A program made the position numbers and the translations under genes. From IMG/VR virus record IMGVR_UViG_2547132254_000004, positions 1-44,342 of that record: 44,342 nt of DNA. One strand, 5' to 3'. The notes beneath the pieces are model-generated. The model saw only the letters and a list, made by a program, of their open reading frames with translations. It ran no database searches and was not told where the DNA came from. Source of the stretch: a virus. Lineage: Duplodnaviria; Heunggongvirae; Uroviricota; Caudoviricetes. Shown here in pieces: positions 32,089-39,663 of this stretch. Numbering within the stretch: position 1 is the stretch's first letter; each line of letters starts with the position of its first letter.

Positions 32089-32549
32089 TCATCACTCGAT
32101 ACAGCGCGCTTGCTGCTTTTCCGTAAACACTGCTCACGACGCGCCAGAAAATTGTTTCGTTCTGGCTGGGAGTGGCTTTCACGGAATGCCGCCATCCACA
32201 CCGTTGCAGCACGACGGTATAAGCCCCTGGACTCCAGTTCTTCAGCCTGGCGGGTCAGGCACAAAATCTCCCGCGGGTCGTTAGTGCCGACATAGAAATT
32301 GCGCACAGGTCTGGTTTCACGAACTGGTTGCGGTTCCGCCTCCTGCGCTCTCTCAGTCAGGCGCGGGAAATGTCTGCGTGTATCCCCTTCACAACGGTGA
32401 GCCACACGCCCACTCTGACGTAACTTGCTTGCTGACTGCAGAACGCGCTGCCGTGAGTAACCTGCAAAAGCATCCGCAATGTCTCCGGAAGTACACCCCG
32501 GATGGGCTTCAATGTATTTCTGAACTTCATTCAAAAGACTCATGATCAC
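32055..32549 (-). CDS. PerC-family-like transcriptional regulator
   Basis: 164 aa; C-terminal LESRGLYRRAATVWMAAF matches the recalled PerC/Pch signature; N-terminal helix-turn-helix-like region. Confidence 0.45.
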   Translation of the reverse strand: MIMSLLNEVQKYIEAHPGCTSGDIADAFAGYSRQRVLQSASKLRQSGRVAHRCEGDTRRHFPRLTERAQEAEPQPVRETRPVRNFYVGTNDPREILCLTRQAEELESRGLYRRAATVWMAAFRESHSQPERNNFLARREQCLRKSSKRAVSSDEWYLSGNYVGA

Positions 32550-33487
32550 CCCCTGAATCCTGCCGGGATCTGGCTGTAGTCCACGTTGTCGTAACTGGCT
32601 TTGAAGTACGGGTCTTCGCGTTTTTCTGTGTACGTGCTGACGGACGGCGATAAGCGCAGGGAAAGCTCATCCCATTTTTCCCGCAGCTTCGACGGGCTGA
32701 GCACGTTACGGCACCAGAACGGATCGCGGCTGACGCGGCTGTACATCTCGCAGATTTGTTTGTGAGTACGACCATCCTGCACACACATCAGGCGAATTTC
32801 GTTTGCCCAGGCTGTCCAGTTCGGTTCTTTGGGACGAACCACCTCGCCGTCACATTCGGCGGCCAGCTCGTACAGGGCGATGATTTTTTTCCAGAGCCAC
32901 TGTGCGCAGGTCAAATCATCCTGCGTTCCCCACTGGCGCTTTTTAGGGCTGAATACAACCGCATCAGGATGGCGAGTTAAAAACTCCTGTTCAGCCGTCT
33001 GCGTGTCCGGTTGCGAAGCGTCCGGACGAGAAGTTTTTTTATCTGACGGATCATGTTTTGATTTTACTGACGGATCCCCGCCAGATTCTGACGGGTGAAA
33101 ACCCGCTTTTTTGCCAGATTTCGACGCATCAAATTTTGACGGGTCAGATTTTGATGCGTCAGATTTTGACGGGTCAGAATCTGACAATTGAGAAAATGCC
33201 GCTGCCTGAAGCTTCGCAACGTTAAGCTGATAAACATTCGACGCATTGCGGTTACCCTGGCGACGCGCCTTACGCGTTAACCAGCCTTCTGCTTCCAGCC
33301 GTGCGATAGCCGTTCTGACGGTACTCATCCCCGCGCCAATCTGACGGGCAATGGTTTCAATTGATGGCCAGCACACACCTTCGTCATTACTGAAATCAGC
33401 CAGGCGGGCCATAATTGCCACGCTGGATAATTTCATGCCTGACGCAGCGCAACCATCCCATACATAGCCGGTTAATTTAGTGCTCAT
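32546..33487 (-). CDS. Replication initiation protein (N-terminal wHTH; contains the iteron array)
   Basis: 313 aa; N-terminal HTH-like SVAIMARLADFSNDEGVCWPSIETIARQIGAGMSTVRTAIARLEAEGWL; internal SKSD peptide repeats coincide with 15-bp DNA repeats. Confidence 0.6.
   Translation of the reverse strand: MSTKLTGYVWDGCAASGMKLSSVAIMARLADFSNDEGVCWPSIETIARQIGAGMSTVRTAIARLEAEGWLTRKARRQGNRNASNVYQLNVAKLQAAAFSQLSDSDPSKSDASKSDPSKFDASKSGKKAGFHPSESGGDPSVKSKHDPSDKKTSRPDASQPDTQTAEQEFLTRHPDAVVFSPKKRQWGTQDDLTCAQWLWKKIIALYELAAECDGEVVRPKEPNWTAWANEIRLMCVQDGRTHKQICEMYSRVSRDPFWCRNVLSPSKLREKWDELSLRLSPSVSTYTEKREDPYFKASYDNVDYSQIPAGFRG
33040..33190. repeat. Iteron-like direct repeats (putative replication origin) inside the initiator gene
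   Basis: About 8 copies of a TCTGACGG(A/G)TC-centred unit; the last five (AGATTTTGACGGGTC / AGATTTTGATGCGTC) are spaced exactly 15 bp apart. Confidence 0.6.
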
Positions 33488-33496
33488 GACCGACCT

Positions 33497-33835
33497 CTAT
33501 TTCCCTGAATTTACGACGAAACTGTTCGAGCGGACTGAAGCATTCATGCTCATAGCCTTCGCGGAGGTAGATAACCCGTTGTGTTTCCGGCTCCCAACGA
33601 ATGACTCTGACGGGTACTCCGTAGTGATCTTTGAACCAGCGGTTAACTTGTCGCAAAGGACTGTCTCCTTTTGCCGGTTAAAATCACCCACAGCCCACTC
33701 TGCAAAGCTGTGGGTTACAATTACCCTGCCACCTGGTACATTTACTGCATAGCAATACTCCACCTTCGCTTTTCCACCCGGTACAGGAAGCGCAATCAGT
33801 TGCGAGCGACGGTAGTGTGTTGTTAAACTGTTCAT
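33497..33835 (-). CDS. Hypothetical protein between the cII-like and replication genes
   Basis: 112-aa track ORF in operon orientation; no recognisable motif. Confidence 0.3.
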
Positions 33836-34383
33836 GCGTTAGTTTCTCCACAGTCACGACACGCCACGGCGCCCGGAGCTGCACACTCGCGGGCGTCATT
33901 ACTTTCTGAAATGCAAAAAATTTTGTAGACCAGTGCTGCATGCTCCTGCAGCTTCGAAATTGAGAGGTACAGCTCGTCGTTAATTGCTGTCTTCTCATGC
34001 GGTTCCACTACACCGTCTTCAATTGCTGAACGAATCTGTTTTGAATAACTGCCGATCTGTTCAATGACCTCCAGCAGGCGTTGGTTGATATCGGCGTTGT
34101 CCACATCCTCGACATCAGGAAGAGACACAAAGACGCCATTTGCAGACTGCGCCACAGCGTCAGCAATGAAGTGAGTTCCACCAGCACGTTGCAAAATCAT
34201 TGCCCATCCCAGCGGGAAAATCTGATCGCCATCGGCACGAAGGCGGTTAAATAATGCGTTCTCTGTTACATCCAGCCAGTCAGCAGCTTCAGCGTACCCC
34301 CCCGGCAACGCTGCGATAGTTTTTCTGACAGCTTTCACGTACCACTCAGGCTGTTTTTCTACTTTCCAGTGATGCTTACCCAC
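33832..34383 (-). CDS. CII-like regulatory protein (CP76-type)
   Basis: 183 aa directly downstream of cro in the rightward operon; family assignment from recollection. Confidence 0.5.
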
Positions 34384-34636
34384 GGTTCACCTCCTGTTCC
34401 TGTGGTTTAAACCCATTCTGGTTTTGGCTAGATTGAAAACGTGCCGGATAAAGAATCTGCATTTCGCTGACTTCACCCTTAAAAAAATTGGCTAAACGTT
34501 CTGCAAGCTCGATAGATGGAATCTGCTCCAGCCTCTCAATACGACTCAACGTCGCTGGATTGACTTGAACACCCGCAGCAACATGCTGCAAAGTGAAACC
34601 ATGCGCCTTACGCACATTTCGTAATGGTGATTGCAT
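34376..34636 (-). CDS. Cro-like HTH (XRE family) repressor
   Basis: 86 aa with HTH HGFTLQHVAAGVQVNPATLSRIE; divergent from cI across an operator-containing spacer. Confidence 0.7.
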   Translation of the reverse strand: MQSPLRNVRKAHGFTLQHVAAGVQVNPATLSRIERLEQIPSIELAERLANFFKGEVSEMQILYPARFQSSQNQNGFKPQEQEVNRG

Positions 34637-34733
34637 ATGCCCTCCAAATATTGCGCGTTATGCATGTTATTTCACGCAATTATTTTGCGCAAGTTGATTT
34701 GCTTATCACGCAATAAAGAAATGTAATAAACGC
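34637..34733. promoter_or_regulatory. Right operator/promoter region with TTGC-N7-GCAA palindromes
   Basis: Palindromic 15-mers TTGCGCGTTATGCAT (34651-34665) and TTGCTTATCACGCAA (34699-34713), plus TTGCGCAA (34685-34692), between divergent cro and cI. Confidence 0.5.
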
Positions 34734-35426
34734 ATGAACATAGGAAACCGAGTCAGACAACTTCGCCAAGCGAAGAACATGAAAATCGCCGATCTCGCTG
34801 AAGCGATAGGAGTAGATGCGGCGAACATCTCGCGCTTAGAAACGGGTAAGCAAAAACAATTTACCGAACAAACACTGAGTAATATTGCCAAGAGCTTAGG
34901 TGTTGATATTGCTGATCTCTTTACCTCTGCCCACAAAAGTAATACTGTATATAAAAACAGTAATAATGAGGATGTTGCGCAGGTGAAGGATGTGTTCCGT
35001 ATTGAAATGCTGGATATCAGTGCCAGTGCGGGAAATGGCCTTATCCAGGGCGGTGATGTCATTGATGTGATTCATGCCATCGAATACAGAACTGATAATG
35101 CTGTATCAATGTTCGGCGGACGACCAGCCAATCACATCAAAGTTATCAACGTTCGTGGGGACAGTATGTGTCCAACCATTGAGCCAGGAGATCTCATCTT
35201 CGTTGATGTCAGCATCAATCAGTTTGATGGTGATGGTATATATGTCTTTGGTTTTGATGACAAAATATACGTTAAAAGACTTCAAATGATTCCTGACAAA
35301 CTGCTGGTGATTTCTGATAACCAGATTTACCGTGAATGGGGAATTACTAGCGAAAACGAACACCGATTCATGGTCTTTGGAAAGGTCTTAATCAGTCAGT
35401 CGCAAACCCTTAAGAGACATAATTAA
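34734..35426 (+). CDS. CI-type prophage repressor (XRE HTH plus S24/LexA-like peptidase domain)
   Basis: 230 aa; N-terminal HTH RVRQLRQAKNMKIADLAEAIGVDAANISRLETGK; C-terminal S24-like region (GDSMCPTIEPGDLIFVD ... VKRL). Confidence 0.85.
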   Translation: MNIGNRVRQLRQAKNMKIADLAEAIGVDAANISRLETGKQKQFTEQTLSNIAKSLGVDIADLFTSAHKSNTVYKNSNNEDVAQVKDVFRIEMLDISASAGNGLIQGGDVIDVIHAIEYRTDNAVSMFGGRPANHIKVINVRGDSMCPTIEPGDLIFVDVSINQFDGDGIYVFGFDDKIYVKRLQMIPDKLLVISDNQIYREWGITSENEHRFMVFGKVLISQSQTLKRHN

Positions 35427-35445
35427 CCTCAATATCCCATCCATC

Positions 35446-35469
35446 GGCCACCGAAAGGTGGCTTTTTAT
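35446..35469 (+). terminator. Rho-independent terminator after cI
   Basis: GCCACC-GAAA-GGTGGC followed by TTTTTATT, 20 nt after the cI stop. Confidence 0.55.
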
Positions 35470-35480
35470 TACCTATAAAT

Positions 35481-35517
35481 TTGCATATCTCGCAAACATC
35501 ACTTGCATATCTCGCAA
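35481..35517. promoter_or_regulatory. Left-operator-like pair of identical palindromes TTGCATATCTCGCAA
   Basis: Two identical copies (35481-35495, 35503-35517), same TTGC-N7-GCAA architecture as the cro/cI sites, upstream of the early-left genes. Confidence 0.45.
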
Positions 35518-35702
35518 TTTAATTTTATCTTTTGTTCCAGACCAACTACAGGATTACAACAAAATCTGGTTGCAACACGGTGCATGTGTCGTAAGCAGTC
35601 AGTAAATGTCAAAAACGAACAGGCAGGACGCCCACGAAGTAGCCGCCGGTGGCGTATGAATGACCGGATGATTCGTTAAATACTATGTGTAAGAGAGCGC
35701 AA

Positions 35703-35906
35703 ATGAACCGTTATTTCACATGCTCGTTTTGTGGCGCAAACGAGCTGCAGGCAAAAAAAATCATCGCCAAAGGCGGAAAAGATGAAGTTGCTATCTGCTC
35801 TGAGTGCGTAGTCTTGTGTGTCGGGGCATTAATCAATAGCAGCACAACTATTCGGTTCACACCAAATGAGAATGCGCCTTTAGATGCGCGGAAATCTGGA
35901 GGTTAA
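35703..35906 (+). CDS. Small ClpX-type C4 zinc-finger-like protein
   Basis: 67 aa from ATG 35703 (MNRYFTCSFCGANELQAKKIIAKGGKDEVAICSECVVLCV...); CSFCG...ICSECV spacing resembles the ClpX N-terminal zinc-binding domain; AAGAGAG RBS. Confidence 0.45.
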   Translation: MNRYFTCSFCGANELQAKKIIAKGGKDEVAICSECVVLCVGALINSSTTIRFTPNENAPLDARKSGG

Positions 35907-38334: not shown

Positions 38335-39663
38335 CTGATGAATCCCCTAATGATTTTGGTAAAAATCATTAAGTTAAGGTGGATACACATCTTGTCATAT
38401 GATCAAATGGTTTCGCGAAAAATCAATAATCAGACAACAAGATGTGCGAACTCGATATTTTACACGACTCTCTTTACCAATTCTGCCCCGAATTACACTT
38501 AAAACGACTCAACAGCTTAACGTTGGCTTGCCACGCATTACTTGACTGTAAAACTCTCACTCTTACCGAACTTGGCCGTAACCTGCCAACCAAAGCGAGA
38601 ACAAAACATAACATCAAACGAATCGACCGATTGTTAGGTAATCGTCACCTCCACAAAGAGCGACTCGCTGTATACCGTTGGCATGCTAGCTTTATCTGTT
38701 CGGGCAATACGATGCCCATTGTACTTGTTGACTGGTCTGATATTCGTGAGCAAAAACGACTTATGGTATTGCGAGCTTCAGTCGCACTACACGGTCGTTC
38801 TGTTACTCTTTATGAGAAAGCGTTCCCGCTTTCAGAGCAATGTTCAAAGAAAGCTCATGACCAATTTCTAGCCGACCTTGCGAGCATTCTACCGAGTAAC
38901 ACCACACCGCTCATTGTCAGTGATGCTGGCTTTAAAGTGCCATGGTATAAATCCGTTGAGAAGCTGGGTTGGTACTGGTTAAGTCGAGTAAGAGGAAAAG
39001 TACAATATGCAGACCTAGGAGCGGAAAACTGGAAACCTATCAGCAACTTACATGATATGTCATCTAGTCACTCAAAGACTTTAGGCTATAAGAGGCTGAC
39101 TAAAAGCAATCCAATCTCATGCCAAATTCTATTGTATAAATCTCGCTCTAAAGGCCGAAAAAATCAGCGCTCGACACGGACTCATTGTCACCACCCGTCA
39201 CCTAAAATCTACTCAGCGTCGGCAAAGGAGCCATGGGTTCTAGCAACTAACTTACCTGTTGAAATTCGAACACCCAAACAACTTGTTAATATCTATTCGA
39301 AGCGAATGCAGATTGAAGAAACCTTCCGAGACTTGAAAAGTCCTGCCTACGGACTAGGCCTACGCCATAGCCGAACGAGCAGCTCAGAGCGTTTTGATAT
39401 CATGCTGCTAATCGCCCTGATGCTTCAACTAACATGTTGGCTTGCGGGCGTTCATGCTCAGAAACAAGGTTGGGACAAGCACTTCCAGGCTAACACAGTC
39501 AGAAATCGAAACGTACTCTCAACAGTTCGCTTAGGCATGGAAGTTTTGCGGCATTCTGGCTACACAATAACAAGGGAAGACTTACTCGTGGCTGCAACCC
39601 TACTAGCTCAAAATTTATTCACACATGGTTACGCTTTGGGGAAATTATGAGGGGATCTCTCAG
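38335..39663 (+). mobile_element. IS10 (IS4 family), 1329 bp, flanked by 9-bp target duplication TGCTTTGCA
   Basis: Ends CTGATGAATCCCCTAATGATTTTGG... and ...GGGGATCTCTCAG match IS10 termini; identical TGCTTTGCA at 38326-38334 and 39664-39672. Confidence 0.95.
38442..39650 (+). CDS. IS10 transposase
   Basis: 402 aa (MCELDILHDSLYQFCPELHLKRLNSLTLACHALLDCKTLTL...) matching the IS10/Tn10 transposase. Confidence 0.95.
   Translation: MCELDILHDSLYQFCPELHLKRLNSLTLACHALLDCKTLTLTELGRNLPTKARTKHNIKRIDRLLGNRHLHKERLAVYRWHASFICSGNTMPIVLVDWSDIREQKRLMVLRASVALHGRSVTLYEKAFPLSEQCSKKAHDQFLADLASILPSNTTPLIVSDAGFKVPWYKSVEKLGWYWLSRVRGKVQYADLGAENWKPISNLHDMSSSHSKTLGYKRLTKSNPISCQILLYKSRSKGRKNQRSTRTHCHHPSPKIYSASAKEPWVLATNLPVEIRTPKQLVNIYSKRMQIEETFRDLKSPAYGLGLRHSRTSSSERFDIMLLIALMLQLTCWLAGVHAQKQGWDKHFQANTVRNRNVLSTVRLGMEVLRHSGYTITREDLLVAATLLAQNLFTHGYALGKL

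Follow-up and report, generated by a model that had tools for sequence, protein, structure and literature searches.

Does the short stretch of DNA between two divergent regulatory genes of an SfII-like prophage carry the operators of a lambda-type immunity switch and, if so, which proteins would read them? In the window (i.e., the whole 44,342-nt stretch of viral DNA analyzed here), this gap spans 34637–34733, exactly the 97 bp from the ATG of a cro-like gene (34636, − strand) to that of cI (34734, + strand). The original prediction placed three palindromes in this gap and regarded them as the recognition sequence of the repressor. We located all three, at 34651–34665, 34685–34692, and 34699–34713. 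Judging from their location, conservation, co-segregation with cI and cro, and covariation with the recognition helices, the palindromes are very probably CI/Cro operators of such a switch.

Layout of the cro–cI locus

The region from 33800 to 35700 was 98.7% identical to Shigella phage SfII, in which a cII-like gene, cro, cI, and a terminator are annotated. The cro-like gene (34376–34636, − strand) encodes an 86-aa protein matching Pfam HTH_3 (E = 5e-10), and a Shine-Dalgarno sequence, GGAGG, lies 5 nt 5′ of its ATG; when OR regions that agree everywhere else are compared, the 3–4 nt separating the two (34637–34640) prove highly polymorphic. The cI repressor gene (34734–35426, + strand; 230 aa) combines an N-terminal HTH_3 domain with a C-terminal Peptidase_S24 autopeptidase domain, and the residues Ala99-Gly100, Ser144 (GDSM), and Lys181 are present and conserved, as judged from alignment and motifs. 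Adjoining cro is the cII-like gene (33832–34383, − strand), which belongs to the Pfam Phage_CP76 family, while cI is followed by a predicted intrinsic terminator (35446–35472, + strand) that is also annotated in the SfII record. The locus displays the layout of a lambdoid switch, with a repressor gene of the HTH plus S24 type standing divergent from a small cro across a short control region.

For comparison, we assembled 168 loci with a CI of the SfII-type family, which provided 52 distinct OR sequences and 103 distinct sequences downstream of cI. The scan of genome contigs yielded 5 of these loci. To reach more divergent relatives, we used the CI N-terminal domain as a tblastn query against phage records. 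A CI protein 100% identical to that of the window was found in at least 72 prophage loci, mostly IMG/VR viral contigs. In the GenBank records of mEp460 and Stx2a_1447 (2413–2457), cI is begun at an internal ATG corresponding to Met16 of the window protein, a start that would delete the first helix of the HTH domain. We favor the longer ORF because an in-frame ATG lies upstream and the Pfam HTH_3 match begins at residue 7.

Several other features of the window deserve mention in their own right. Inside the O-like replication gene (32546–33487, − strand), 4.3 tandem copies of the 15-bp unit CAGATTTTGACGGGT occupy 33115–33178 and, by their sequence, look like origin iterons. The first ORF past the predicted PL promoter (35703–35906, + strand) encodes 67 aa with a ClpX-type C4 zinc finger (Pfam zf-C4_ClpX, E = 1.4e-10) and is found at the same place in Salmonella F1055 and sal3; that its product modulates ClpX is a guess. 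The early-left region also carries an IS10-like insertion (38380–39650), comprising a transposase-sized ORF of 402 aa (38442–39650, + strand) and a match to Rfam RNA-OUT (38380–38449, − strand; 98.8 bits). This was the only Rfam match in the window, with none in the PL leader.

Probable operator sites and predicted promoters flanking cI

Of the three 15-bp sites in the control region, two are strong and one is weak. The OR1-like operator TTGCGCGTTATGCAT (34651–34665) scored 20.2 bits with the position weight matrix (PWM) described below and consists of a strong half, TTGCG, and a weak half, GCAT, whereas the OR3-like operator TTGCTTATCACGCAA (34699–34713; 19.5 bits) is a full TTGC-N7-GCAA palindrome. 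This formula had been proposed for both 15-mers; it fits TTGCTTATCACGCAA and fails for TTGCGCGTTATGCAT, whose mismatched right arm, GCAT, was kept in 167 of 168 relatives. Between them lies a weak OR2-like operator, TTGCGCAAGTTGATT (34685–34699; 5.5 bits), centered at −42 from the cI ATG. The last T of OR2 is also the first base of OR3 in every lineage, and the OR2 15-mer becomes a good palindrome in C. amalonaticus (TTGCGCAAGTCGCAT) as well as in Yersinia and Cronobacter (ATGCGCAAGGCGCTT). The compact palindrome TTGCGCAA (34685–34692) had been put forward as an element of its own. However, it falls within OR2, and its complement supplies the predicted −35 of PR (34687–34692). As two HTH half-sites cannot overlap, TTGCGCAA makes no self-standing operator, and we read it as the strong half of the weak central 15-mer.

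An additional half-site, CACGCAA (34673–34679), is lineage specific: SfII, mEp460, and C. braakii belong to lineages that carry it, and the lineages of Salmonella, C. amalonaticus, and Klebsiella lack it. Since this left half is missing from the latter three, both an everted palindrome, CGCAA-N5-TTGCG (34675–34689), and an apparent two-fold symmetry of OR about 34682 were rejected as general features. A LexA SOS box (CTGT-N8-ACAG) was rejected as well, with no CTGT found anywhere in 34637–34733.

The half-sites were also expected to recur downstream of cI, and they do so as two exact copies of the same 15-mer, TTGCATATCTCGCAA, just 3′ of the cI terminator (35481–35495, distal; 35503–35517, proximal; 19.7 bits each). 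We read this pair as OL/PL, with the proximal copy covering the predicted −35 of PL. Related, partly symmetric sites (two strong, one weak) are therefore spread over both putative divergent promoters at OR, and the same type of site is repeated at a second operator beyond cI, over a predicted early promoter.

Next, we asked how often such sequences occur in the window as a whole. The bare pattern TTGC-N7-GCAA was found 4 times against 1.38 expected, a weak enrichment, with 3 of 100 shuffles reaching 4; three of the four exact matches are noncoding and, flanking cI, fall within ~820 bp of one another. Allowing one mismatch in TTGC-N7-GCAA, or two in TTGCG-N5-CGCAA, gave no window-wide enrichment, so only exact or PWM-level matches are informative. 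We then scanned all 44 kb with a 15-bp PWM trained on sites of relatives only (mEp460, Salmonella F1055, and three Citrobacter prophages). This motif search across the prophage, proposed with the original prediction, picked exactly four 15-mers (19.5–20.2 bits), all flanking cI; the next best match reached 11.5 bits and ~0.07 sites of ≥19 bits would be expected in the window by chance, although, as the training sites are orthologous to those of the window, the scan demonstrates uniqueness within it rather than independent discovery. The four high-scoring sites are confined to the two positions at which operators are required in a lambdoid phage.

Comparison with related immunity regions, likewise proposed at the outset, revealed conserved arms and drifting centers. 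The 52 distinct OR sequences aligned without any gap across the control region, and the invariant or nearly invariant blocks comprised TTGCG and CAT of OR1, a central block TTGCGCAAGT, TTGC and GCAA of OR3, and TGTAAT. OR1 occurred in 16 variants among the 168 loci (all TTGCG-N6-(G/A)CAT) and OR3 in 13, every one of them TTGC-N7-GCAA, while TTGCGCAAGT was invariant (168/168) and more conserved than any full site. Downstream of cI, the distal and proximal OL sites showed 33 and 30 variants, respectively, with conserved arms in both. Two OL sites were present in 164 of 168 relatives, with a start-to-start spacing of 22–24 bp in 163 of the 165 scorable loci; because the relatives are homologous sequences, all of these counts represent non-independent events. 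A single OL site downstream of cI was seen in one relative, IMGVR_UViG_2529293213_000044, the outcome to be expected if recombination between the two 15-bp repeats had caused a deletion.

Pooling the 83 distinct site sequences yielded the consensus T-T-G-C-(A/G)-(T/C)-A-(T/A)-(C/T)-N-C-G-C-A-A, in which positions 2–4 and 12–15 carry 1.7–2.0 bits each and positions 5–10 at most 0.9 bit each. This consensus and its information profile point to TTGCG-N5-CGCAA as the ideal site, a refined motif of which real sites, going by their sequences, usually hold one strong and one weaker half. Among 68 prophages whose CI is 100% identical to that of the window, a phylogenetically non-independent sample, the arms had a minor-allele frequency of 0.004 and the remaining ~100 bp one of 0.005, compared with 0.078 in the distal OL center and 0.088 in the spacer between the OL sites. 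Polymorphism was concentrated 16- to 20-fold in 35485–35502, namely across the seven-base center of the distal OL site and the spacer to the proximal one. This variability could reflect ongoing selection on operator strength, for instance if induction is being tuned or if the phage escapes a resident repressor.

A σ70 consensus scan of 34300–35800 called no promoter at ≥9/12, so promoters were assigned from conserved geometry. The predicted PR has its −35, TTGCGC (34692–34687, − strand), within OR2 and, 17 bp away, its −10, TAACAT (34664–34669, − strand), which was below the threshold of the consensus scan. This −10 reads TAACAT, TAATAT, or TAAAAT in closer relatives and TATTAT, with the same geometry, in Cronobacter. 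In the opposite direction, the predicted PRM combines a −35, TTGCTT (34699–34704, + strand), within OR3 with a −10, TGTAAT (34722–34727, + strand), at 17 bp; the latter was invariant in all 52 distinct OR sequences, and the arrangement (−35, 17 bp, TnnAAT, 6–7 nt, ATG) is retained in Yersinia and Cronobacter. Beyond cI, the predicted PL is directed at the early-left genes, with its −35, TTGCAT (35503–35508, + strand), within the proximal OL site and its −10, TATCTT (35526–35531, + strand), 17 bp downstream in a region (TTATCT/TATCAT) conserved in relatives. All three match the σ70 consensus at 7–8 of 12 positions, with the PRM −10 lacking the usual A at position 2, and the PR/PRM geometry is gapless in all lineages, distant ones included. 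No Shine-Dalgarno sequence precedes the cI ATG, and, as the PRM −10 ends only 6 nt before it, the cI mRNA would be leaderless. We also considered whether the PL leader (35536–35705) forms a structured RNA and rejected this, its fold being no better than that of shuffled sequences (z = +1.18).

Placed on this map, OR1 would cover the last 2 bp of the PR −10 together with the predicted PR start, OR2 would lie on the PR −35, centered at −42 of PRM, OR3 would extend over the PRM −35 and part of the spacer, and the proximal OL site would lie over the PL −35. Such overlap raises the question of whether the repeats are mainly promoter elements, i.e., TTGCxx −35 hexamers of PR, PRM, and PL conserved for RNA polymerase. 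TTGC does coincide with a predicted −35 at three of the five sites (OR2/PR, OR3/PRM, and proximal OL/PL), and the most conserved block, TTGCGCAAGT, contains the PR −35. However, the GCAA arms have no promoter role, yet both arms are >95% conserved, GCAA as much so as TTGC. Moreover, OR1 falls on the −10/+1 region rather than on a −35, and the distal OL site, although upstream of the PL −35, is still TTGC-N7-GCAA in nearly all relatives. Phage SfIV, finally, carries a quite different palindrome at the same positions, which promoter constraints would not require. We consider it very unlikely that promoter function accounts for the repeats and favor their reading as operators.

Proteins that may read the sites

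The heteroimmune phage SfIV speaks to the identity of the putative binding proteins. By blastn, SfIV matches the window at ~98% identity as far as 34411, a stretch that takes in the complete cII-like gene, and similarity resumes at 35611; everything from 34412 to 35610 (cro, OR, cI, and OL) is replaced. The replaced segment corresponds to a mosaic immunity module, comprising most of cro, OR, cI, the terminator, and OL/PL, that is swapped en bloc. Within it, CI and Cro are only 22% and 21% identical to those of the window, respectively, and the palindromes at equivalent positions read TGTAC-N7-GTACA. Because SfIV keeps the flanks and the cII-like gene, only Cro and CI change along with the palindromes, which argues against the CP76 protein or any other shared factor as the binder. 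The segment at the right edge of the module (35611–35678, ACGAACAGGCAGGACGCCCACGAAGTAGCCGCC...) is conserved even in SfIV, Salmonella F1055, and Citrobacter phiNP; it may serve as a linker for recombination or contain a signal of a kind not recognized so far.

The same comparison bears on the possibility that another phage regulator, namely the cII-like CP76 protein or an activator of the lambda CII type (TTGC-N6-TTGC), recognizes the repeats. TTGC is also the half-site of lambda CII, a CP76-family gene adjoins cro, and one TTGC-N6-TTGC lies inside cro (34578–34591, − strand). On the other hand, the repeats of OR and OL are inverted (N7) rather than direct, the CP76 family is unrelated to lambda CII, and the cII-like gene remains outside the swapped module, ~98% identical at the DNA level in SfIV despite the different palindromes. 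When searched for across the window, the lambda CII-type pattern was at chance level (4 found versus 3.5 expected), with no occurrence in OR or OL. Binding by such a regulator is, in our estimation, extremely improbable, and CI and Cro remain the preferred candidates.

Distant lineages provided a second line of evidence, since half-sites and recognition helices appear to vary together. Klebsiella relatives keep the CI recognition helix DAANISRLET and have TTGCG/CGCAA sites, and Citrobacter phiNP, with a slightly altered helix (DGANVSRVET), keeps TTGCG/CGCAA too. In Yersinia vB_YenM_30.14 and Cronobacter ENT47670, the CI helix reads DVGN(V/L)SRLER, the Cro helix DVGNLSRIER, and the sites are mostly ATGCG-N5-CGCAT. 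The sites travel with the repressor: they are replaced in heteroimmune SfIV, and the outermost base of the half-site changes from T to A in lineages with an altered helix. In Cronobacter ENT47670, two operator-like 15-mers, ATGCGCTTGACGCAT and ATGCGCTATACGCAT, abut each other ~130–170 bp 3′ of cI (start-to-start distance, 15 bp), and the gene after cI encodes an N-like antiterminator, unlike in the window.

When the window CI and Cro are set on the Pfam HTH_3 frame, their recognition helices share A-x-(I/L)-S-R-(L/I)-E, which fits shared sites; as BLASTP did not align the CI N-terminal domain with Cro, it is this short helix motif that suggests sharing. The CI N-terminal domain matched the 434 repressor (E = 0.008) and dh434 (E = 4e-4) weakly, and among solved structures we found only distant HTH and UmuD matches, none with a known operator of the TTGCG type.

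These observations leave some room for real operators that serve one protein only (e.g., Cro on TTGCGCAAGT) or follow a logic other than that of lambda, for instance without positive autoregulation or with mutually exclusive OR2 and OR3. In line with this option, OR2 and OR3 share a base pair at a 14-bp center spacing, OR3 is strong and OR2 weak, the central block exceeds every full site in conservation, CI and Cro failed to align by BLASTP, and non-lambda behavior is documented for the repressor of phage 933W (PMC3317979). Against a single binder, SR(L/I)E is common to the CI and Cro helices, both of which are altered in lineages with a changed half-site, and two HTH half-sites spaced by one helical turn would not fit into a 10-bp palindrome. 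We regard this option as unlikely, and our preferred reading remains one in which both CI and Cro use the 15-bp sites.

The proposed switch and its distribution

In the switch that we propose, CI (a 434-like HTH domain joined to an S24 autopeptidase) and Cro (a small HTH_3 protein) would each recognize, as dimers, 15-bp partly symmetric sites with the ideal sequence TTGCG-N5-CGCAA, contacting the outer 4–5 bp of each half-site and leaving the center free to vary. CI bound at OR1 and OR2 would silence cro together with the replication genes, perhaps stimulating PRM as well, while CI at OL (two sites just past the cI terminator, the proximal one over the −35 of the rightward PL) would repress this lytic promoter. 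Occupation of OR3 by Cro or by excess CI would turn off PRM and cI, whose transcript would start at or beside its ATG as a leaderless mRNA, and SOS-triggered autocleavage of CI would induce the prophage. Differing site preferences of the two proteins, cooperative binding, and looping of OL and OR over ~0.8 kb are hypothetical elements of this scheme. The site-by-site logic may differ from that of lambda because OR3 is of consensus strength, lies on the PRM −35, and overlaps OR2 by 1 bp. With a consensus-strength OR3 overlapping a weak OR2, occupation of one site could preclude that of the other, and cI could be tightly self-limited.

Several features of this arrangement are shared with lambda, in which OR2 is centered at −42 of PRM, the sites are 17 bp long, OR1 and OR2 are spaced by 24 bp, OL contains three sites, OR3 is the weakest site for CI, and the cI mRNA is leaderless. 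Like lambda, the window has divergent cI and cro genes, three partly symmetric OR sites overlapping (predicted) PR and PRM, a central OR site near −42 of PRM, another operator beyond cI at a (predicted) PL, a repressor with HTH and S24 autocleavage domains (Ala-Gly, Ser/Lys), and a cI mRNA that is probably leaderless. In contrast to lambda, with its TATCACCGC-type sites, the sites here are 15 bp long with TTGCG half-sites, only two of them form OL, the centers of OR1 and OR2 are 34 bp apart, OR2 and OR3 overlap by 1 bp (centers 14 bp apart), and OR3 and OR1 match the consensus equally well. Furthermore, OL directly follows the cI terminator and rex genes are absent, an N gene is not apparent, and the cII analogue belongs to the CP76 family.

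Similarities to other phages were partial as well. The repressor and Cro of phage 434 belong to the same HTH_3 fold class and share sites (as they putatively do here), and their operators also have conserved outer 4–5 bp and variable central bases; however, the 434 sites (14-bp ACAA-N6-TTGT) differ in half-site sequence and length, and the proteins are only distantly related. SfV and SfIV, the heteroimmune siblings of SfII, resemble the window in genome architecture, in flanks of ~98% identity, and in the order cro-OR-cI-terminator-OL, and they differ in CI and Cro (21–22% identical) and in palindromes (TGTAC-N7-GTACA versus TTGC-N7-GCAA). The switch of Stx phage 933W is likewise lambdoid with only two OL sites, the number given for EDL933 in PMC4587872. 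It also exemplifies an affinity order unlike that of lambda (PMC3317979). Nevertheless, its repressor and operator sequences are unrelated to those of the window, and 933W has been characterized biochemically, whereas the SfII-type group is known from sequence.

None of the six operator 15-mers turned up in the text of the literature searched, in which we found no binding, footprint, transcription-start, or reporter data for an SfII-type phage or its relatives. The SfIV genome paper states that cI and cro of SfII differ from those of SfIV and SfV and gives no operators (PMC3851460), a survey of CI clades in Stx phages lists none for the SfII-type group (PMC8951638), the mEp phage paper includes none for this group either, and the operators identified in work on O157 Stx2a phages were confined to lambda-like clusters (PMC4587872). 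As no publication with these sites was found, the operator sites appear undescribed, while the kind of element is textbook (the lambda paradigm) and the mechanism is not new.

Finally, we found that the immunity module (34400–35620) is present at ≥80% identity in 1,041 of 5,426 complete E. coli genomes (~19%), usually once per genome. The same repressor type occurs in Shigella phage SfII, coliphage mEp460, Salmonella ST64B-like phages, Citrobacter and Klebsiella prophages, and several Stx2-converting phages, and the annotation of the module's genes in RefSeq and genome records goes no further than XRE regulator and S24 peptidase. A joint reading that combines non-lambda wiring, selection on the strength of the OL operator, and widespread cross-immunity and cross-regulation strikes us as rather doubtful. 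The operator code TTGCG-N5-CGCAA, together with the coordinates given here, provides testable predictions on cross-immunity and on the control of Stx2 phage induction, and it could guide the design of reporters or virulent mutants. If the reading is correct, the shared code would predict widespread cross-immunity and the cross-regulation of Shiga-toxin phages by resident cryptic prophages.
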